The notes beneath the pieces were generated by a model. The model did no database searches. It saw only the letters and a program-made list of their open reading frames with translations, and had not been told where the DNA came from. Below, one piece after another: positions 1 to 7,153 of a stretch of 7,153 nucleotides of DNA (position 1 is its first letter; the number at the start of each line of letters is the position of its first letter). The translations under genes and the position numbers were made by a program. This DNA comes from a virus (lineage: Duplodnaviria > Heunggongvirae > Uroviricota > Caudoviricetes), in the IMG/VR virus record IMGVR_UViG_2657245112_000033, one strand, 5' to 3'.

Positions 1-162
1 TAGCTATAAATACATCTAAATACCTATATCCCTTCCCTTATGGCTAGATTGCGAGAAGTGCTTAACGCGATTTTCAGCGCCCCCCGATCTGGAAAATCCA
101 GAATCCCCAAATATCAGCAAGGAATTTTCTTGCGTAATCAACATCGTTTTTACCTATTAAAT

Positions 163-189
163 CATTACACAGAAAGCCTTTCTGTAATG
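163..189. repeat. Near-palindromic site carrying the ATTACACAG motif (ATTACACAGAAAG-c-CTTTCTGTAAT)
   Basis: 12-bp arms are reverse complements apart from one bulged base. The left arm contains the same ATTACACAG motif that recurs through 505-1900. Confidence 0.6.
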
Positions 190-442
190 TCTCTCACTAA
201 ACTTTCACTAAACACGAGAATGATCGGTTTTATGTCGGATCAGATGCTAGAAACAGCACCACGTCTCACAAGGGCTGTAAGCGATGAAACCAGTGTTTAT
301 GCGGGTGCAGGTCAAAATATAGGCCAAAATCCATTTAACATAATAATCGTAATATGCACTAAGGAACACATAGAACGCCTTGAGTTGATGTATCAGGGGA
401 AAAGTGATGGATTTTTTACGTAGGAGCACGAGAGGGCTTCTG

Positions 443-470
443 TTGACTTTTGTGTGCTATGAAATATAAT
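443..470 (+). promoter_or_regulatory. Sigma70-like promoter, TTGACT-16 bp-TATAAT
   Basis: TTGACT at 443-448 and a perfect TATAAT at 465-470 with a 16-bp spacer. It points rightward into the repeat region, where no ORF of 60 aa or more follows. Confidence 0.5.
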
Positions 471-504
471 TAAAAGTTTTTTGTTTTTATCGTGTGATGT
501 AGTG

Positions 505-951
505 GATTACACAGGGGAATAGATTAAATGGTGTTCTGTTTATACAGGTTTATTTGTTAGATCAACAATTTGGCATTTCTAAACAGATGTTTGAACGTTG
601 CCAAATGTCTTGACAACACAAGAAAAGGGCTTGCTATGCCACGCATTACACGAAATAAGGCTGTAAAAACAAAATAAATTTTAAAATTTGCACAAACAAG
701 AAAACTCATTAAGAAACAAGCAGAACAATTTTTAGCCAACAATTTCTGATGGTGCTCTGTAAGCCGCATTACACAAGGATTTGCGAAAGTGATGTAAAAG
801 TGAAGAAAGTAAGAATTGAACTTTTAAGCTACTTTTTTCATTGAATTTTTAGTATGGAATTACACAGGAATAAGTTAGGGATATTCTATGATTTACACAG
901 GGAATATAGGGGGGATTATGGCACACACATAGAAAGGCATTACACAGAGTG
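505..951 (+). repeat. Dispersed direct copies of the ATTACACAG(G)RAATA motif (6 copies)
   Basis: Copies at 505-522 (gattacacaggggaatag), 644-660, 767-780, 858-874 (aattacacaggaataag), 891-910 (atttacacagggaatatagg) and 938-951. All share the TTACAC core in the same orientation. Confidence 0.75.
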
Positions 952-966
952 CTATGTGACAAATGG

Positions 967-1072
967 ATGTAACGAGAGGTTACATTCAGCTATCTGAAAT
1001 GCTCTTTGTAAGAAAGTTGGTAGTAACGATATGTTACATAGACTAATTATTGAATGTAACGATATTACACAT
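967..1072. promoter_or_regulatory. Three tandem inverted-repeat operator-like sites (ATGTAAC-N5-GTTACAT)
   Basis: 967-985 atgtaac-gagag-gttacat (perfect 7-bp arms); 1021-1040 tagtaac-gatat-gttacat; 1054-1072 atgtaac-gatat-tacacat; plus a half-site at 1086-1095. The arm sequence GTTACAY is the TTACAC-family core. Confidence 0.55.
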
Positions 1073-1097
1073 CGGAAGATGATTGAATGTAACGGTA

Positions 1098-1138
1098 GCT
1101 CACAGTGAGCTAGGGGTAGGTCATAGTGAACTACCCCC
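1098..1138. repeat. 13-bp perfect palindrome GCTCACAGTGAGC plus about 1.5 units of the 22-bp iteron family
   Basis: gctcacagtgagc at 1098-1110 is its own reverse complement. It is followed by taggggta-ggtcatagtgaactac-ccccc, which matches the unit repeated at 1355-1436; ggggtag and ctacccc form a 7-bp inverted repeat. Confidence 0.7.
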
Positions 1139-1146
1139 ACAGAATT

Positions 1147-1198
1147 CTGTTACCCCTATCAAGTCTGATACCCCTATCAAAACTGATACCCGATAAGA
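1147..1198 (+). repeat. Three tandem 18-bp repeats (CTGWTACCCCTATCAA)
   Basis: ctgttacccctatcaag (1147-1163), ctgatacccctatcaa (1165-1180), ctgatacccgataag (1183-1197, degenerate); period 18 bp. Confidence 0.7.
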
Positions 1199-1208
1199 AT
1201 AAATAACA

Positions 1209-1309
1209 CCTAGGAAATGATTTCCGATCTATTTAGGAAGTAACCTAGGAAGTGGTTTCCTACCTACTTAGGAAATGAGTTCCTACCTACCTAGGAAATG
1301 AGTTCCACC
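1209..1309 (+). repeat. Four to five direct copies of a 15-bp motif TAGGAARTGRKTTCC, each with an internal GGAA-N5-TTCC inverted repeat
   Basis: Copies at 1211-1225, 1246-1260, 1269-1283 and 1292-1306 (the last two identical), plus a degenerate copy at 1234-1245; spacing mostly 23 bp. The architecture resembles plasmid centromere or iteron arrays. Confidence 0.7.
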
Positions 1310-1331
1310 AATACTATAATTAAATAATATA

Positions 1332-1354
1332 AATAATATTCTTTATACTATATA
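1332..1354 (+). repeat. 23-bp perfect direct repeat, copy 1 (aataatattctttatactatata), left of the iteron array
   Basis: Identical to 1482-1504. AT-rich and contains a TATACT -10-like hexamer. Confidence 0.85.
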
Positions 1355-1436
1355 GGTCACTGTGACCTAGGGGGTAGGTCATAGTGAGCTAGGGGGTAGG
1401 TCATAGTGAGCTAGGGGGTAGGTCACTGTGAACTAC
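1355..1436 (+). repeat. 22-bp tandem iterons, about 3.7 copies (GGTCAYWGTGASCTAGGGGGTA)
   Basis: Units at 1355-1376, 1377-1398 and 1399-1420 (the last two identical), plus a truncated unit at 1421-1436. The first unit contains the perfect 13-bp palindrome ggtcactgtgacc. AT-rich tracts lie on both sides. Confidence 0.85.
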
Positions 1437-1481
1437 AATAAGACTATTAATAAAACTATATTAGATTATTAATTAGATCAT

Positions 1482-1504
1482 AATAATATTCTTTATACTA
1501 TATA
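1482..1504 (+). repeat. 23-bp perfect direct repeat, copy 2, right of the iteron array and its AT-rich tract
   Basis: Exact match to 1332-1354; the flanking bases differ on both sides, so the repeat is exactly 23 bp. Confidence 0.85.
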
Positions 1505-1509
1505 TATAT

Positions 1510-1930
1510 GATCTTTTGCCTTCCGGCGTTAGCTTCACTCTCTGGCAAGCAGCCTTACTCCGCTACCTTTCGGGCTTCGTGGCTGGCCCGTTCCGCTCAC
1601 ACCGAAAGCAAAGCGTTACTTTCTTCGTGTAACTATCGTGGCGGTAACGCCCACGAAGAAATACTATTGCGCTGTGCGCAGAAGAGTAATCACCTAACCA
1701 ATCATACTGATTGCTTATGTGTAACTCTCTACCTCTTAATTCCACTTCCTACATTTAATAACTCTCGTTATTCTCTGTAGTTGTGTAATTACTCGAAGAG
1801 AGCGGCTAAAGCTCAATTACACTCTGCTTTCCTCGTGTAATTTCACTAAGCCTCAATACAATTTCACTTCCTACATTCTGTAGTCGTGTAATTGTTTTCG
1901 GTGGAAAAGCCAGAGGCGACACCGAAAGAG
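1510..1930. other. GC-rich island with dense hairpin potential; candidate structured RNA or single-strand DNA initiation element
   Basis: Visibly more GC-rich than its AT-rich flanks. Predicted stem-loops: 1621-1660 (outer ttcttcg/cgaagaa around a GC stem capped by a GUAA tetraloop), 1668-1680 (tgcgc-tgt-gcgca), 1749-1780 (ctaca...tgtag enclosing aataac-tctc-gttatt) and a shorter paralogous module at 1862-1893. The 7-mer ctctggc (1540-1546) is complementary to gccagag (1909-1915), and caccgaaag occurs at both ends (1600-1608, 1920-1928). Inverted TTACAC copies lie at 1626-1633, 1717-1725, 1782-1790, 1834-1843 and 1885-1893. Confidence 0.35.
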
Positions 1931-1962
1931 AATTCTGATCTTATTAATCTTATCTATCTTAG

Positions 1963-2001
1963 TTATCTTACTTACTTATCTTACTTACTTTATCTACTTT
2001 A
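1963..2001 (+). repeat. 13-bp tandem repeat (TTATCTTACTTAC, about 3 copies) inside a G-depleted AT-rich tract
   Basis: ttatcttacttac at 1963-1975 and 1976-1988, with a degenerate third copy at 1989-2001. The plus strand from about 1939 to 2020 contains almost no G. This could be a DNA unwinding element. Confidence 0.65.
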
Positions 2002-2515
2002 TTATTAATAATATCTTTATAAGCTCTGTGTAGCTCTCTGACGCAAGAAACAGCATTCAGGAAGGGAATCACCTTAGAAAAGTGTTCTTTGCGTCATAAT
2101 GTGTTTTATGAAGGATTCAGAGGTGTTTCATAACAGAGATGTATAGAGGATACTTTAGGTAATTAAAAATAAGGGGTCTAAATGCTTCTCTAACAACATT
2201 AAGCAGGGTAGGGAATGGAAACGCATTGCCTACATATAATAAACTCACTACAGGGCTTTACAGAGCGTTTTATAAAGTGACTCTCTGTTTTATATCTATC
2301 ATCATCTAACAAATACAAAATAAGCCACTTAAATAAGCCTCTGGCGAGCTAAACAGCCATTAGATAAGGGAATGTATTGCTTTTATCAAAATCTCGTTAG
2401 AACGCGTTTTAGAGCGTTTTAGACAATAAGGAAGAATAGCACTACATAGGAGAGCACGAATTGCTAAGAAAAAATGTAAGTGCATGAAAAAGATCAGATT
2501 TTTTATGAAAAGGTA

Positions 2516-2544
2516 TTGACAAATGTTTCTTTATATGTAATAAT
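2516..2544 (+). promoter_or_regulatory. Sigma70-like promoter with extended -10 (TTGACA-17 bp-TGt-AATAAT), probable promoter of the 2656-4950 operon
   Basis: TTGACA at 2516-2521, TG at 2536-2537, AATAAT at 2539-2544. The leader downstream contains a short hairpin (aagcc-gtca-ggctt, 2603-2616) and a T-run at 2625-2635 before the first ribosome-binding site. Confidence 0.55.
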
Positions 2545-2655
2545 AGGTATTAGAGGGACAGAAAAACATTCTTCTCTAAATAATCAAAATCAATGCACTT
2601 TGAAGCCGTCAGGCTTGCAAGGTGTTTTTTCTTTTAACTGAATAAGGAGTTTTTT

Positions 2656-2844
2656 ATGAAATGGTTTACACCTGAGCACGTCGTCCAGGCATTTAAAAAA
2701 GGTGAGCTTACACGCCACCAAGTAGTAATGAATCGTAATATGGCAAGGAGTCGAGGTTATCCAGAGCGAGCAGCTTGCTTCAATGAAGCACTCAAGATTA
2801 TTGATGAACTAAGAAAAAATGAAAAAGAATCTGAAACAGAGTAA
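2656..2844 (+). CDS. Hypothetical small protein (62 aa)
   Basis: ATG at 2656 preceded by AAGGAG (2644-2649); first gene after the predicted promoter; no family recognised. Confidence 0.6.
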   Translation: MKWFTPEHVVQAFKKGELTRHQVVMNRNMARSRGYPERAACFNEALKIIDELRKNEKESETE

Positions 2845-2863
2845 AGAAGAGAAGGAGAAAACT

Positions 2864-3034
2864 ATGAGCGAAACTACAGAAAAGAAAAGACAACCACGCA
2901 CTTGCTTTCATATTCCTGATGAAGTATTTCAGGTGTTATTTAAAGAAGCCAGAAGTAGACGGATCACTGTCACAGATTACATTCTTGATATGTTGAAAAG
3001 AGAGGCTGAAACACTCTCAAATAAAAGCAAGTGA
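2864..3034 (+). CDS. Ribbon-helix-helix-like (CopG/Arc-type) small DNA-binding protein, about 56 aa
   Basis: The track ORF is 2819-3034, but the ATG at 2864 has an AAGGAG site (2852-2857) and lies after the upstream stop (2842-2844), while 2819 has none. The segment RTCFHIPDEVFQVLFKEARSRRITVTDYILDMLKRE fits a strand-helix-helix pattern. Confidence 0.5.
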   Translation: MSETTEKKRQPRTCFHIPDEVFQVLFKEARSRRITVTDYILDMLKREAETLSNKSK

Positions 3035-3087
3035 TTTTTATCACCATAGTAGCGCCATAGAGCGTGATTACATCAAGGAGATTTTTA

Positions 3088-3780
3088 ATGATTAACCAAC
3101 TAACTTTTACAAAACACTATGACACGTTTGATAATGTATCAAAGATTTATTCTGATAAATTCCCTCAAGGAAAAGATTTAGATCTATTACATATTGTGCT
3201 TTATTTTCGATTCCTTAGTTATCAGGAAAACAACCTTAATTGTTATGAAAGTCACGAAACATTAGCTAAGATTTTTAAGTCTTCAGCGTCAACAATTAAA
3301 CGTAAGATAAACGATCTTAAAGAGATGGGATTATTAGAAACATCCCCACATCCTGATCCGTATATTTCATCTTTGATTTACAATGCTCTCCCTCTCACAG
3401 ATGCACATATTACTCCCCCAGGAGAATCATCACTCTCTGATCTTTCTGAGGCAGAAGAAGCACAGGAACAACCTAAAGGCCATAAACAGCCTTCTTTTGA
3501 TGTTCTTGATGATGATTGGGATACGCCTTTACCGTGGGAGACGGAAGAAACACCTGTTTCATCAAGTGAAAAGGTAGCTAATGATAATGAGGAGGATGTG
3601 TTAAAGAATTTTGCCTCTCTTATTATCAAGCAGAAGAATACTAGAACAGGAGGAGCATCATTTATAGAATTTGCAACATCGTTAGCCTATAAGCACAGGT
3701 TAAAGCTACCAAATGGTATTGAGGCATATTTTGCTAAGAAACATCCCAAAGTATACGAAGACTTTGATATTCCATTTTAA
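3088..3780 (+). CDS. Winged-HTH-like DNA-binding protein with acidic C-terminal region ending in an SSB-tail-like DFDIPF; possible replication initiator or organiser
   Basis: The track ORF starts at GTG 3064; the in-frame ATG at 3088 has AAGGAG at 3075-3080 with a 7-nt spacer. The N-terminal part (LHIVLYFRFLSYQENNLNCYESHETLAKIFKSSASTIKRKINDLKEMGLLE) fits a winged-HTH pattern. The C-terminal half is acidic (DDDWDTPLPWETEE) and the last residues are EDFDIPF. Confidence 0.7.
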   Translation: MINQLTFTKHYDTFDNVSKIYSDKFPQGKDLDLLHIVLYFRFLSYQENNLNCYESHETLAKIFKSSASTIKRKINDLKEMGLLETSPHPDPYISSLIYNALPLTDAHITPPGESSLSDLSEAEEAQEQPKGHKQPSFDVLDDDWDTPLPWETEETPVSSSEKVANDNEEDVLKNFASLIIKQKNTRTGGASFIEFATSLAYKHRLKLPNGIEAYFAKKHPKVYEDFDIPF

Positions 3781-3791
3781 TAAGGAGGGTT

Positions 3792-4070
3792 ATGATTCAA
3801 TATTTAGTAAAAAATCAAGTAGACAGAATTCAGTGTAACGACACAGGAAAACGCATCTACGAAACACTTGCTTACCTCTATAAAGGAAAGCCAACACCGC
3901 TAAAATATAGCGATGTGTTACATCGAGCAGGGTGCTCTGAAGATGGTTTAAAATTCTGGCTGAAACAGCTATCAAACTTCGGTGTTATAGAAATTAAAGA
4001 ATTATCTTTCTCTACATTCAATCTCAAAAGACTAGATAAAGAAATAGAATTCATCTATTCCACTCTCTAA
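3792..4070 (+). CDS. Small winged-HTH-like protein (92 aa)
   Basis: ATG at 3792 preceded by AAGGAGGG (3782-3789), 11 nt after the upstream stop. The segment IYETLAYLY...KYSDVLHRAGCSEDGLKFWLKQLSNFGVIEI follows the same helix-turn-wing pattern as the upstream protein. Confidence 0.65.
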   Translation: MIQYLVKNQVDRIQCNDTGKRIYETLAYLYKGKPTPLKYSDVLHRAGCSEDGLKFWLKQLSNFGVIEIKELSFSTFNLKRLDKEIEFIYSTL

Positions 4071-4111
4071 AATCTCTCTATGTAATTAAAATATAAAAGG
4101 AAAACATTATT

Positions 4112-4231
4112 ATGATAGTAGCTATGTATTGGTTATTGTTCTTTCTCACGTTAGAAACATACTTCGGGGTGTTTTCCTTTAAAAGAAAAGGAAAAGTAAA
4201 TAATGGCAAAAAGAAAAAACAACGTTGTTAA
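4112..4231 (+). CDS. Candidate small hydrophobic peptide (39 aa, MIVAMYWLLFFLTLETYFGVFSFKRKGKVNNGKKKKQRC)
   Basis: Not in the ORF track because it is under 60 aa. ATG at 4112 with AAAAGGA (4096-4102) upstream. One hydrophobic segment followed by a lysine/arginine-rich tail. Its 3' end overlaps the start of the next gene out of frame. Confidence 0.25.
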   Translation: MIVAMYWLLFFLTLETYFGVFSFKRKGKVNNGKKKKQRC

Positions 4232-4613
4232 GAAAATCGGGGATTCAGCTTCTCTTCTAAGTAAACCTAAATCTATTCTAAGACGCAAAGACTTTAAAGA
4301 GCTAGTTACGCTCACCAAGCAAAATAGCGCCCCTGGCGAATGGAAAACAGAGATCATAGAACATTCTCCCTCTGTGCCTTGCGGAGATGAATTTAACGCC
4401 TTACAAGAAATCTTATCTTCAACACCTGGCGTATTCTGGAAACCTAGAAAAAGAAAAGAGTATATCGTTGATAGCTCTGATTTACGCAAATACCAGATTT
4501 TAGGATTTGAAGACTATAACCACTACGTTGGTTATCTCGCCACAAATGGCCTAAATAACTTAGTTCCAGACTTCCAGATTCTAGATAATGCTGATCACTA
4601 TGGAGACTTTTAA
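4203..4613 (+). CDS. Hypothetical protein (136 aa) with basic N-terminus
   Basis: ATG at 4203 with AAGGA (4188-4192) upstream; the N-terminus MAKRKNNVVKK is basic; no family recognised. Confidence 0.6.
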   Translation: MAKRKNNVVKKIGDSASLLSKPKSILRRKDFKELVTLTKQNSAPGEWKTEIIEHSPSVPCGDEFNALQEILSSTPGVFWKPRKRKEYIVDSSDLRKYQILGFEDYNHYVGYLATNGLNNLVPDFQILDNADHYGDF

Positions 4614-4614
4614 T

Positions 4615-4950
4615 ATGAACAAAAACACGTATGACACAATTTACTCACTAATTAATTATTATGAGGATGATTACCTTCTGCCTTTAAACCGCGCTGAACT
4701 TGAAGCATACAAAGAAAACACACCAGCGTCACTAAATGAGGCGTTTAAACACTGGGATTTAGCTGTGAATGCCTTTGAGCACCTCTCTAAGCGTGTAGAG
4801 ATGCTCTGTAAGCGCGAAAACGCATACCTGACAGCCGATCAGATATGGGAGCTATCAAACTGGATAGAAGATATCGAATCTGATGTTCGCTATGTGGGAG
4901 ATGGACTTGTCGAACTCGCTCAACGCTTAGGCACTATCACAGAAGAATAA
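4615..4950 (+). CDS. Hypothetical protein (about 111 aa)
   Basis: The track ORF starts at 4588. In-frame ATGs at 4600 and 4615; the one at 4615 follows GGAG (4602-4605) and the upstream stop (4611-4613), so 4615 is preferred but uncertain. Confidence 0.55.
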   Translation: MNKNTYDTIYSLINYYEDDYLLPLNRAELEAYKENTPASLNEAFKHWDLAVNAFEHLSKRVEMLCKRENAYLTADQIWELSNWIEDIESDVRYVGDGLVELAQRLGTITEE

Positions 4951-4979
4951 AAAAAGCAACAAAAAAGTTGTAAAATATC

Positions 4980-5008
4980 TTGACATTCCATCTATTATAT
5001 GTTAATAT
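4980..5008 (+). promoter_or_regulatory. Sigma70-like promoter with extended -10 (TTGACA-17 bp-TGt-TAATAT)
   Basis: TTGACA at 4980-4985, TG at 5000-5001, TAATAT at 5003-5008. Same architecture as the promoter at 2516-2544. Confidence 0.5.
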
Positions 5009-5146
5009 AATTATATGGGGTGATTATTTTTCCTTTATTGGTTCGATATTAAAAATTCTTCTTGTCGTTAAAGGGGAGTAAAATCTCCGCTCCCCGCTTC
5101 TCCTCCTTAAGTAAATACTGTGTCATTATTACCTCTTTTTTCCTTT

Positions 5147-5176
5147 GTTATGCATACATCTTGGAGTATGCATAAC
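5147..5176. promoter_or_regulatory. Perfect 11-bp inverted repeat GTTATGCATAC-N8-GTATGCATAAC (operator-like)
   Basis: Arms at 5147-5157 and 5166-5176 are exact reverse complements. The half-site GTTATGCA recurs at 5242-5249 next to a second small inverted repeat (caactt-aa-aagttg, 5248-5261). Confidence 0.6.
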
Positions 5177-5205
5177 ATAGGGTAATTACATAGGTACAAG
5201 TTAAT

Positions 5206-5238
5206 AAAAGGCGGCTCTAAATGCTGCCTTTTATTTTG
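5206..5238. terminator. Rho-independent terminator hairpin, possibly bidirectional
   Basis: aaaaggcggc (5206-5215), loop tctaaat, gctgcctttt (5223-5232): about a 10-bp stem with one G-U pair, followed by ttttatttt. The A-run upstream gives a matching U-run on the opposite strand. Confidence 0.6.
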
Positions 5239-5299
5239 CCCGTTATGCAACTTAAAAGTTGTATTTCTTACTTTAAACAAGGTAACAAGGTTTATATAA

Positions 5300-5512
5300 A
5301 TGTTGTTCTTAAATGATAAAGAGCAAATCATCAAGTATAAAGATGAAATGCTGAAAATAAATCCACAAATTACCGAAATGGTAGCTAAATACGCTGGGTG
5401 TTCTGTAGAAGAAGTAGAAAGATGTGTTGAAAAATATTTTTCTCCTTCTTCTCCGTCTACACCTTCCCTTAATGAATTAATCAAATTAAAAGCTAAGGAG
5501 ATTACTAAATGA
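5300..5512 (+). CDS. Hypothetical small protein (70 aa)
   Basis: Its stop overlaps the next start (ATGA at 5509-5512), suggesting translational coupling. Weak ribosome-binding site (aagg near 5288). Contains a Ser/Pro-rich segment SPSSPSTPS. Confidence 0.5.
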   Translation: MLFLNDKEQIIKYKDEMLKINPQITEMVAKYAGCSVEEVERCVEKYFSPSSPSTPSLNELIKLKAKEITK

Positions 5513-5871
5513 TTATTGATTTAGACACTCTGTTTCCAGTTCGAAAGACTTTCACAGATATTGTAAGTTATTGTACTGATCCGTTTGCCTCTGTAGAAAG
5601 CAAGGTTTTTGCTTCTCTTCCTGCTGATGTTGAATGCGGCGACTTGATCACCAGCACTGGCGCTAAATATGTATCAGGAGATGATATCTATGTTGTTATG
5701 AGTGAATTTGTAACGGCTGGAGAAAACAAACCTGTAGATGTTTTACGTAGCAATGCTGGGCTTGTATGCATCAAAGCTGATGCGCTGAATGCTGTAAGTG
5801 AAGCAGCAAAAACAGCATTAATTAAAAAAGGCTTCCAGCTTGAAGGGTTCCATTCTGTTTTCACTTCTTAA
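5509..5871 (+). CDS. Putative head decoration or accessory head protein (120 aa), assigned by position only
   Basis: AAGGAG at 5495-5500, ATG at 5509. It sits immediately upstream of the major capsid gene, where lambda has gpD, but I see no clear sequence similarity to gpD. Confidence 0.55.
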   Translation: MIIDLDTLFPVRKTFTDIVSYCTDPFASVESKVFASLPADVECGDLITSTGAKYVSGDDIYVVMSEFVTAGENKPVDVLRSNAGLVCIKADALNAVSEAAKTALIKKGFQLEGFHSVFTS

Positions 5872-5889
5872 TAAAAGGAATAATAATAA

Positions 5890-6918
5890 ATGATTCTAGG
5901 CAATGATTACGTTGATTTGATCCCTCTGTTCCAGACACACAGCACGCGTAACTTCCTGCTCTCTACTCTTGATTTTACGGATTCTGTAGGGGTTACATCT
6001 CATAAAGTAGCTGTTTCCCAGCTTGTCGAAAGCAACGAATCTCTCTTTAACAAAGAGACAAGCCGTTTTAGTTCTGAACACAATGTTACTAAGCGAGAAC
6101 AAGGTAAAGAATGGCTGATCGAGATCCCTTACTTCCTGCGTGAAGATGTGATCCGTCCTTCTGATGTTCAAGGCAAACGTAAACCTGGCACTGATTTCCA
6201 GGAAACACTCACTGATATTTATGCGGAATATATCGCTAAACACCACGTAGCGTATCAGCGTACAAAAGAGAGCGTATTGGCTGCTTCTTTGTTCTCGGGC
6301 AAAACTTATACACCGAAAACTGATGATGTTCTTATCGAATGGGGCAAGCTGTTTAACGTATCAGCTATGAAAGCCACTGTGAACGCTTCCAGCACTGACA
6401 CCACGAAGATTTTTAAAGAATTTGATCAGATTGCTACTGACATTATCGAGAAAGCACAAAGCCAGGCGTCTGCTGTAGAGCGTATTGTTGTTTTCTGTAA
6501 ACCTGAAGCCTTCTCCGCAATTCGATTCTCTGCTGGTATGGCAAACGCATTCCAGTATGTAAGCCCACTGGAAGAGGGGAACGTTGTGTATCAGCGTCGT
6601 GACCTGCTGCCAGGGGTGACAGCGTTCACTATCCCAGGAACTAACATTGATGTTGTTAAACTGGTAGATCCGCTACACCTTGCACATATGACTTCTGATG
6701 CGGTTGCGATTCCGAAGTTTGCTAAAGGCTCTAATGTATATCAGAACATCTACGGGGCTGCTTCCAGCACTTTTGAACTGATCAATGCCGCTCCTGCTGA
6801 GGTGTATAGCTATAGCTATGAATCTTCTCGTGGTGATGCTGTTAACGTTGTTACAGAGAATAGCCAGATGGTTGTAAACCACGGTGTAGGCTTCTCCGTT
6901 CAAATCACTGTTAAATAA
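5890..6918 (+). CDS. Major capsid protein, lambda gpE family (342 aa)
   Basis: AAGGAA ribosome-binding site before ATG 5890. Length matches gpE (341 aa). Several segments resemble my recollection of lambda gpE: SVLAASLFSGKTYTPKTD vs AVSAVLKGKYTMTGE, ASAVERIVVFCKPEAFSAIRFS vs ASGVVNIIVFDPKGWALFRSF, DLLPGVTAFTIPG vs NFLPDNTMVLG, and C-terminal GFSVQITVK vs EFVSVQLA. Recalled, not aligned. Confidence 0.85.
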   Translation: MILGNDYVDLIPLFQTHSTRNFLLSTLDFTDSVGVTSHKVAVSQLVESNESLFNKETSRFSSEHNVTKREQGKEWLIEIPYFLREDVIRPSDVQGKRKPGTDFQETLTDIYAEYIAKHHVAYQRTKESVLAASLFSGKTYTPKTDDVLIEWGKLFNVSAMKATVNASSTDTTKIFKEFDQIATDIIEKAQSQASAVERIVVFCKPEAFSAIRFSAGMANAFQYVSPLEEGNVVYQRRDLLPGVTAFTIPGTNIDVVKLVDPLHLAHMTSDAVAIPKFAKGSNVYQNIYGAASSTFELINAAPAEVYSYSYESSRGDAVNVVTENSQMVVNHGVGFSVQITVK

Positions 6919-6958
6919 TATTTAACGTGTAATAGAGGCGTGGCGCTGAGAGATCCCC

Positions 6959-7153
6959 TCATAATTTCCCCAAAGCGTAACCATGTGTGAATAAATTTTG
7001 AGCTAGTAGGGTTGCAGCCACGAGTAAGTCTTCCCTTGTTATTGTGTAGCCAGAATGCCGCAAAACTTCCATGCCTAAGCGAACTGTTGAGAGTACGTTT
7101 CGATTTCTGACTGTGTTAGCCTGGAAGTGCTTGTCCCAACCTTGTTTCTGAGC
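6959..7153 (-). CDS. Possible 3' end of a convergent gene running off the window (C-terminal 64 codons, unknown function)
   Basis: The minus-strand frame entering at 7153 is open for 64 codons (...GMEVLRHSGYTITREDLLVAATLLAQNLFTHGYALGKL) and stops at 6959-6961. It is absent from the track because no Met start lies in the window. The composition is protein-like, but a chance open frame is not excluded. Confidence 0.3.
   Translation of the reverse strand, partial: AQKQGWDKHFQANTVRNRNVLSTVRLGMEVLRHSGYTITREDLLVAATLLAQNLFTHGYALGKL

Follow-up and report, generated by a model that had tools for sequence, protein, structure and literature searches.

The G-depleted, AT-rich tract at 1939–2022 of the 7153-nt stretch of DNA analysed here (the window) is, in our judgement and with slightly better than even confidence, a lineage-specific, slippage-prone AT spacer that derives from an AT block of the neighbouring origin and has no essential sequence-specific role. 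The unwinding element would instead be 1436–1509 and/or 1303–1354, the AT blocks that flank the repeats to which the replication initiator appears matched. A first-pass annotation, made from the letters of the window, had suggested the tract as a DNA unwinding element or single-strand-binding site, acting together with the structured island on its left as one unit for replication initiation or priming.

Genomic setting of the element

The window appears to come from an integrative satellite-like element, seemingly undescribed, that is widespread in E. coli and present in other Enterobacterales. Many E. coli genomes contain positions 1–6930 unchanged as a chromosomal segment, 6938–7153 are an IS10/ISVsa5 end, and of 5426 complete E. 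coli genomes 739 contain relatives. In strain E2865 the window corresponds to the left part of a ~12-kb element beside tRNA-Thr; a tyrosine integrase lies at the opposite end of the element. The first 2655 nt are non-coding and carry many repeat families; the coding part, which begins at 2656, includes the following genes.

3088–3780, plus strand: replication initiator Rep, with an HTH_36 domain, O-like/DnaD-like, and a C-terminal DFDIPF, assigned from matches to PHROG replication-initiator families
5890–6918: Phage_cap_E capsid protein

Promoter-like sites were seen at 443–470 (strong, plus strand) and at 2516–2544, the operon site, which is ~500 bp downstream of the tract. Relatives were gathered via homologues of the capsid protein; these occur in Citrobacter, Klebsiella, Enterobacter, Cronobacter, Dryocola, Sodalis and Serratia, with the gene order preserved. 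A contig profile search with the Rep alignment gave three loci only, because Rep is too variable. Our literature searches did not turn up a published account of a matching satellite family. Identity with CP-933H/Sp1 of O157 at thrW was considered and proved wrong, as Sakai Sp1 is an unrelated lambda-like remnant. A distant blastn search of 1440–2320 against 50,697 phage records found no match, and a phage search with the whole window gave just 40–50-bp matches, located in other parts of the window. In the Rfam scan of the whole window the sole match (SurA, elsewhere in the window, E 0.69) was at chance level, and ARAGORN found no tRNA or tmRNA in the window.

Composition and repeat structure of the tract

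The features of the tract and of its right-hand surroundings are as follows.

1939–2022: G-depleted AT-rich tract, T/C/A-rich on the plus strand and purine-rich on the minus strand
1949–1999: degenerate tandem-repeat core of period 13 with CTTA/ATCT sub-units (TRF), the hypervariable part of the tract
1937–1948: left arm (12 nt) of an AT inverted repeat, GATCTTATTAAT, holding the only GATC of the tract
2004–2015: right arm of the same inverted repeat, ATTAATAATATC, pairing with 1937–1948
2039–2096: inverted repeat with 14-bp arms 30 nt apart, immediately to the right of the tract and within the type-A-specific segment described below (RNA –21 kcal/mol, z –1.4)

Over 1939–2020 (82 nt, TCTTATTAATCTTATCTATCTTAGTTATCTTACTTACTTATCTTACTTACTTTATCTACTTTATTATTAATAATATCTTTAT) the plus strand has A22 C13 G1 T46, with its sole G at 1962. 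The G-free run that follows, 1963–2022, is at 60 nt the longest run free of any one base anywhere in the window. When the whole window was shuffled with dinucleotides preserved, a single-base-free run of at least 60 nt arose in 4 of 300 shuffles and an 82-nt stretch with at most one of some base in 1 of 300; shuffling 1300–2100 alone gave 2 and 1 in 1000, respectively. The G-depleted tract is thus real and moderately unusual, and the description of about 80 nt with almost no G in the first-pass annotation holds.

TRF describes 1949–1999 as 3.9 copies of period 13 with 84% matches (consensus CTTATCTTACTTA), and there are overlapping descriptions of period 4 (CTTA) and period 9, within 1938–1999. 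The unit TTATCTTACTTAC is exact in two copies only, at 1963–1975 and 1976–1988, and the flanking copies at 1950–1962 and 1989–2001 are degenerate, which makes the earlier count of about three 13-bp copies a fair one. The G depletion of the tract is largely a by-product of the expansion of this G-free unit. The two 12-bp arms that bracket the repeats, a feature that the first-pass annotation did not mention, are 92% complementary.

Among 80-bp stretches of the window, 1942–2021 has the second lowest stability by nearest-neighbour energies (–0.98 kcal/mol/bp, against a window mean of –1.267 with an sd of 0.087). A prediction of helical stability across 1300–2100 had been proposed as a check; the low stability was recovered, but 1437–1516 ranks first. 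For 40-bp stretches of the window, stability is lowest at 1314–1353, 1467–1506 and 1982–2021. As single strands both sides of the tract are unstructured, with folding energies of –0.75 and –2.15 kcal/mol as DNA and –3.5 and –4.0 kcal/mol as RNA, and z above 0 throughout (+0.6 for the plus-strand RNA at –3.5 kcal/mol). Apart from the local 12-bp AT inverted repeat, no long-range pairing partner was found for the tract of the kind seen in type-B elements (below). The tract matches 1434–1453 over 20 nt at 75% and 2484–2501 over 18 nt at 83%, both weak and at chance level for AT-rich DNA.

Length variation among type-A elements

E. coli elements of the kind found in the window, which we call type A, have 1482–2660 in common at 91–100% identity. 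The tract is part of a segment that they carry:

1929–2199: 271-nt segment specific to E. coli type-A elements, comprising the tract, the inverted repeat at 2039–2096 and ~100 nt more

We found 13 tract alleles of 70–85 nt among 19 type-A loci. They differ by 4, 9 or 13 nt, always within the repeat core, and both flanks of the tract, the bracketing inverted repeat included, are invariant in 13 of 13 alleles. Such unit-step length changes between fixed flanks point to slipped-strand mispairing. The tract in fact combines the two hallmarks of bacterial simple-sequence repeats, namely short units placed head to tail (as TRF finds) and length polymorphism in steps of the unit with conserved flanks, and like the repeats known to undergo slipped-strand mispairing it lies in non-coding, AT-rich DNA. 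It differs from these in having a composite, degenerate 4/9/13-nt unit rather than a clean homopolymer or tetramer, and from phase-variation repeats in lying outside any promoter spacer or ORF. The only ORF over the tract, a 38-aa TTG ORF at 1892–2008, was rejected, as its frame is broken by 4-nt and 13-nt indels in relatives.

The segment 1929–2199 was matched over 258–279 bp in 425 genomes, at 445 places. It occupies a median of one place per genome and at most two, none of them on plasmids. A mobile MITE was considered for this segment and rejected, given one place in the median genome and the fact that it always travels with the element. The tract was kept in every type-A locus examined, and in 418 of the 425 genomes with at least 80% coverage. 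This retention, together with the invariant flanks and inverted repeat, would fit selection too. Type-A elements are only 91–100% identical, so that retention is weak evidence either way.

Iterons, AT blocks and the probable origin

The part of the non-coding region to the left of the tract contains the following features.

1303–1354: second AT block, on the opposite side of the cognate iterons from 1436–1509, with a 52-nt G-free run (low stability and opening model)
1353–1435: cognate iterons, 3.8 copies of 22-bp TAGGTCACAGTGAGCTAGGGGG (TRF-type repeat and co-variation with Rep)
1436–1509: AT block abutting the cognate iterons, the most probable DNA unwinding element (least stable 80 bp and opening model)
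1510–1935: hairpin-rich, GC-richer island, the structured island of the first-pass annotation, homologous across Enterobacterales, with the conserved end GCCAGAGG (folding and alignments)

Every relative shows the same order of an iteron array, an AT-rich block directly after it and then the hairpin island. The iterons themselves fall into different families, and across genera the N-terminal domain of Rep is 66–89% identical within an iteron family and 20–35% identical otherwise. The families, with our locus labels and Rep N-terminal identities, are as follows.

TAGGTCAC: window, L007 and L008, 89%
CCTAGGAAATGAG: L027 and L029, 71%
CCCCTATCAA: E. coli L004 and Enterobacter L046, 68%
ACAGAAnnCTGT: E. 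coli L028 and Citrobacter L048, 66%
ACATCAAAATGATGT: Klebsiella L044 and Cronobacter L051, 80%
Different iteron families (all other pairs): 20–35%

Since Rep co-varies with the iteron array that abuts the AT block, the origin of the element is probably made up of the iterons at 1353–1435 flanked by the AT blocks 1303–1354 and 1436–1509. In four of the four E. coli type-B loci tested, no other 80 bp in the locus is less stable than the block equivalent to 1436–1509; in four of the eight loci from other taxa, this block holds the least stable 60 bp found in non-coding DNA. Block 1436–1509 touches the iterons and is a better candidate, and more widely conserved, than the tract, which begins at 1939, 503 bp from the last iteron (ending at 1435) and ~430 bp from the AT block, with the hairpin island between.

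Predicted strand opening

Stress-induced opening was modelled with our own simplified implementation, which uses AT/GC copolymer energetics, at most four open runs and a linear domain; the values quoted are for a 5-kb domain at sigma –0.045 to –0.065 unless noted. P(open) was 0.80–0.997 for 1436–1509 and up to 0.90 for 1303–1354. For the tract it was 0.008–0.051 in the 5-kb domain and 0.002–0.051 overall. In this model the tract is easily melted alone, yet outcompeted by the AT blocks that touch the iterons.

The tract resembles known unwinding elements, such as the AT-rich region of the lambda ori and the 13-mers of oriC and RK2 oriV, in its AT-richness, low stability, 13-nt period and strand asymmetry; it also begins with GATC and lies within the non-coding region of a Rep/iteron origin. 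It differs from them in lying away from the initiator sites with a 430-bp hairpin island between, in being outcompeted by 1436–1509 and 1303–1354, in its unstable copy number and in its lack of conservation. An unwinding element is expected to be the DNA most easily melted under negative superhelical stress, to adjoin its initiator sites within tens of bp, and to keep its position and AT-richness in related replicons. The tract is second in nearest-neighbour stability with a P(open) of no more than 0.051, is 503 bp off, and is absent in other genera. Preferential unwinding at the tract is therefore not what the model predicts, opening being expected at 1436–1509 and 1303–1354 instead, and the reading of the tract as an unwinding element fails in silico on opening, on adjacency and on conservation. 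Of the proposed part in replication initiation, what stands is that the tract lies within the neighbourhood of a putative Rep/iteron/AT-block origin, but the unwinding site is predicted elsewhere.

The hairpin island and the same position in relatives

Both strands of the island at 1510–1935 fold more stably than shuffled sequences do (z –4.1 and –6.6, and –5.9 and –7.1 in another run). Its hairpins show compensatory changes across genera, with 18–19 double-change pairs in a four-sequence set; in the nested hairpins, for example, TTGTGCAA...TTGCACAA stands against TGTGCC...GGCACA among the sequences compared. Folding z-scores favour the minus strand in most genera, and wobble pairs occur on both strands. 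The island has no matching Rfam family, and no sigma-70-like promoters or terminators were found to flank the island or tract, on either strand, in the window, L008 or L046. Judged from its folding and alignments, the island is a conserved folded or palindromic element beside the origin.

In type-B E. coli elements the island is replaced by a different, partly homologous one that has the core CCGCTCACA...TTGCGCTGTGCGCAGAA in common with it. The type-B island ends in an unrelated low-complexity tract, CACAGACAACAACCAACAACAAACAAAAAAGAAAGAA, which is CAA-rich, T-free, G-poor and of average duplex stability. A GTTTTTTGTTTGTTG stretch upstream complements this tract, over 23 nt at 87% in L008 and with comparable pairings in L027. 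The presence of G-poor, low-complexity DNA at the end of this second E. coli island type as well is a hint that an unstructured linker poor in G is needed repeatedly at this position.

Outside E. coli, we compared eight loci, from Enterobacter, Citrobacter, K. pneumoniae, K. aerogenes, Dryocola, Cronobacter and two unassigned assemblies. Their islands are clearly homologous to that of type A and end in the same GTGCCAGAGGGCG, and the next conserved block, GGGTAGGGA (window 2207–2216), follows ~45–60 nt after the island end. None of the eight has an AT tract between these two points; the 80 bp past the island end contain 23–27 G and 12–19 C and are of average or higher stability. On these alignments, only type-A E. 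coli elements have 1929–2199 with the tract, and G-poorness at the position recurs within E. coli only. As neither AT-richness nor low stability is conserved there, the tract need not accompany the island. Conservation of the strand asymmetry in relatives, on which the first-pass proposal in part depended, is likewise largely not seen, other genera having G-rich DNA of normal stability and type B having G-poor but unrelated DNA. Most lineages keep the island without the tract, and so 1510–2020 does not form the single, obligatory replication unit that had been proposed.

Origin of the tract

The right-hand end of the tract points to its provenance.

2001–2022: 3' end of the tract, ATTATTAATAATATCTTTATAA, which copies part of the origin-proximal AT block (motif AATAATAT(T)CTTTATA)

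This end is 82% identical to 1465–1486 in the origin AT block. Within the origin, 1332–1354 is identical to 1482–1504, and both carry the motif AATAATAT(T)CTTTATA (AATAAT-AT(T)CTTTATA) that 2001–2022 carries as well. In addition, TGATCTT occurs at both borders of the island, at 1508 and 1936. From these likenesses we infer that the tract arose by partial duplication of the origin AT block followed by expansion through slippage. We also infer that it has no essential sequence-specific function. Partial copying of the block would have provided the seed, and replication slippage of a G-free unit would have expanded it into the 13-nt repeats built of CTTA/ATCT. Such a history would produce the G depletion and strand asymmetry automatically. 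Melting would take place at the iteron-flanking AT blocks 1303–1354 and 1436–1509 and not at the tract, which, if active at all, would passively separate the hairpin island from the module that follows, as an unstructured spacer tolerant of length changes.

Alternative roles for the tract

There are other possible explanations for the tract. One, which amounts to a weakened form of the first-pass idea and which we regard as unlikely, is that in type-A E. coli only the tract provides a second easily melted, non-self-pairing zone beyond the island. Acting with 1436–1509, it would let the island melt and extrude its hairpins, or would offer a landing zone for helicase, SSB or primosome. Its second-lowest stability among 80-bp stretches of the window is in keeping with this, as are the absence of single-strand structure on both strands beside a strongly folding island and the motif in common with the origin AT block. 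The tract also begins with a GATC-containing AT-rich 13-mer, GATCTTATTAATC, which we take to be loosely like the 13-mers of oriC. It could come open after the primary site has been occupied, or under greater stress, and the SSB-tip-like DFDIPF end of Rep could recruit SSB partners such as PriA. AT-rich flanks promote extrusion of C-type cruciforms, as studies of ColE1 established, and by analogy the inverted-repeat-rich island, bracketed by AT-rich 1436–1509 and 1939–2022, might find itself in a similar context, although the right-hand AT flank is missing in other genera. Such a role would have to be reconciled with a P(open) of at most 0.05, as against at least 0.8 for the iteron-adjacent block, and with the 503 bp to the last iteron. 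It would also have to tolerate length changes of 4–13 nt, the lack of the tract in five other genera and its replacement by DNA of average stability in type B.

A role in RNA seems to us somewhat more doubtful again. The tract could be the unstructured, G-poor (C>G) 3' linker of a plus-strand island transcript, rut-like or serving as a protein platform ahead of 2039–2096; read on the minus strand, it would form a purine-rich 5' leader. A rut site calls for 70–80 nt of unstructured RNA with C over G, and the plus strand of the tract has this over ~80 nt (C:G 13:1, no RNA structure). C makes up just 16% of the tract, however, which is low for a rut site, and the tract is not conserved, other genera keeping the island without it. 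The compensatory changes in the nested island hairpins are typical of a folded single strand, and in type B the G-poor tract at the same position forms one arm of a long-range complementarity. Yet the island has no Rfam match, and wobble pairs leave its strand undecided, with the minus strand folding better in most genera. For transcription there is the strong plus-strand promoter-like site at 443–470, and a U-rich stretch follows the hairpin at 2039–2096; that site, the nearest on the plus strand, is nevertheless >1 kb upstream, and neither strand has a sigma-70-like promoter flanking the island in the window or its relatives.

Quite improbable, in our estimate, is a protein-binding or architectural array (of the H-NS, IHF or Fis type, or for a regulator of the element) or a UP-like AT element that tunes or silences the downstream control region. 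The AT-rich, repeated TTATC/GATAA-like units, the invariant flanks and the position between two regulatory modules, ~500 bp upstream of the operon promoter at 2516–2544, would suit such an array, but inspection found no IHF WATCAA core and no DnaA box, shifts of 4, 9 and 13 nt in unit number and spacing are not in helical phase, and relatives that have this operon promoter do not conserve the tract.

We would likewise put little weight on a bipartite arrangement for type-A E. coli, in which opening by Rep at 1436–1509 spreads through the island, the tract holds the far end open, and hairpins of the single-stranded island load primosome or primase for the DFDIPF-tailed initiator. If true, an AT-bracketed hairpin-island origin would be an architecture not described for phage satellites.

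Implications

Under the spacer reading that we prefer, the tract itself is of little weight: it is a commonplace AT spacer prone to slippage, and seeing it for what it is keeps it from being annotated as an unwinding element. Its length polymorphism might allow type-A elements to be typed at fine scale. The greater gain is a by-product of the analysis, which locates a probable origin in a widespread satellite-like element and shows modular exchange of Rep–iteron pairs across genera. The 430-nt hairpin island next to this origin, conserved with compensatory changes, for that reason deserves experimental attention.

A satellite-like element at tRNA-Thr

Positions 1-6930 of the window are part of an integrative, satellite-like element of about 12 kb at tRNA-Thr (10.9-23.2 kb in locus L002 of our set of related elements), for which we found no published description in the literature searched. 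It carries genes for the initiator Rep, an integrase, a Phage_cap_E capsid protein, a protein of about 610 aa and a Dit-like protein, but lacks genes for a terminase, a portal protein and a primase. The element is carried by 739 of 5426 complete E. coli genomes, and the same gene order is found in elements of Citrobacter, Klebsiella, Enterobacter, Cronobacter, Dryocola, Sodalis and Serratia. In the source of the window, an IS10/ISVsa5 (IS4 family) end at 6938-7153 marks an insertion directly past the capsid gene; strain E2865 is without it.

To the left of the non-coding region, most E. coli elements have a small serine recombinase gene, and those of other genera have a small (~190-aa) tyrosine recombinase gene. 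One resolvase-like enzyme seems to have been replaced by an analogous one. The gene is missing from the variant in the window, and its positions in four related elements are as follows.

Recombinase gene left of the non-coding region
L007, 1939-2490
L008 (type-B island version, E. coli), 1918-2469
L044 (Klebsiella), 1968-2585
L046 (Enterobacter), 3166-3726

Rep and iteron cassettes

Across genera, the N-terminal domain of Rep co-varies with the iteron family (Rep at 3088-3780 and the iteron region at 1094-1435 in the window; related loci L004, L007, L008, L027-L029, L044, L046, L048 from Citrobacter and L051 from Cronobacter), which indicates that the origin cassettes are modular. Three different iteron families are present in the window.

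Iteron families in the window
1146-1191, first family
1208-1306, second family
1353-1435, third family, cognate to Rep

As there are three families but a single Rep, two of the arrays are non-cognate, and these may be relics or incompatibility decoys. At the other end of the protein (3757-3780), Rep of all variants terminates in ...DFDIPF or a similar sequence, much as E. coli SSB has DFDDDIPF at its C-terminal tip. This likeness suggests that Rep recruits host replication proteins that interact with SSB.

Hairpin island and motif polarity

The island at 1510-1935 is kept across genera as nested hairpins with compensatory changes, and it folds far better than shuffled sequences on both strands. 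It has no match in Rfam, and no sigma-70 promoter was found flanking it. On the plus strand, eight copies of ATTACAC(A) lie to the left of the iterons (within 163-1070) and five copies of its complement, GTGTAA, lie inside the island (within 1625-1890), so that the motif points in opposite directions on the two sides of the origin. Type-B islands have GTGCAA/TTGCAC in place of these motifs, as the arms of long inverted repeats of up to 34 nt at 88% (E. coli locus L028).

Promoters and control sites

The window has an operon promoter and a further promoter-like site.

Promoter and promoter-like site in the window
443-470, rightward, sigma-70 promoter-like site close to consensus (11/12; TTGACT, 16-nt spacer, TATAAT)
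2516-2544, within the control region 2516-2634, operon promoter (TTGACA, 17-nt spacer, AATAAT)

The site at 443-470 is directed to the motif field and origin and could be a source of transcription across the latter. Between the operon promoter and the first ORF lies a leader hairpin with a U-run (2595-2634; -18.7 kcal/mol, z -2.4). This layout of promoter and leader is kept in relatives of other genera and has the look of a control point for attenuation or antitermination. A palindromic region at 2383-2426 holds two tandem copies of GCGTTTTAGA. As E. coli relatives have also kept GCGTTTTAGAG upstream of their operon promoter, the region is a probable operator.

Matches to rV5-like phages

Virulent rV5-like phages (Phapecoctavirus, Justusliebigvirus) show matches of 40-50 bp at 93-100% identity to positions 43-88, 3047-3095 and 3384-3426, one of which takes in the start codon of Rep together with its RBS. 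These short matches may hint at the identity of the helper phage or at regulatory signals in common.
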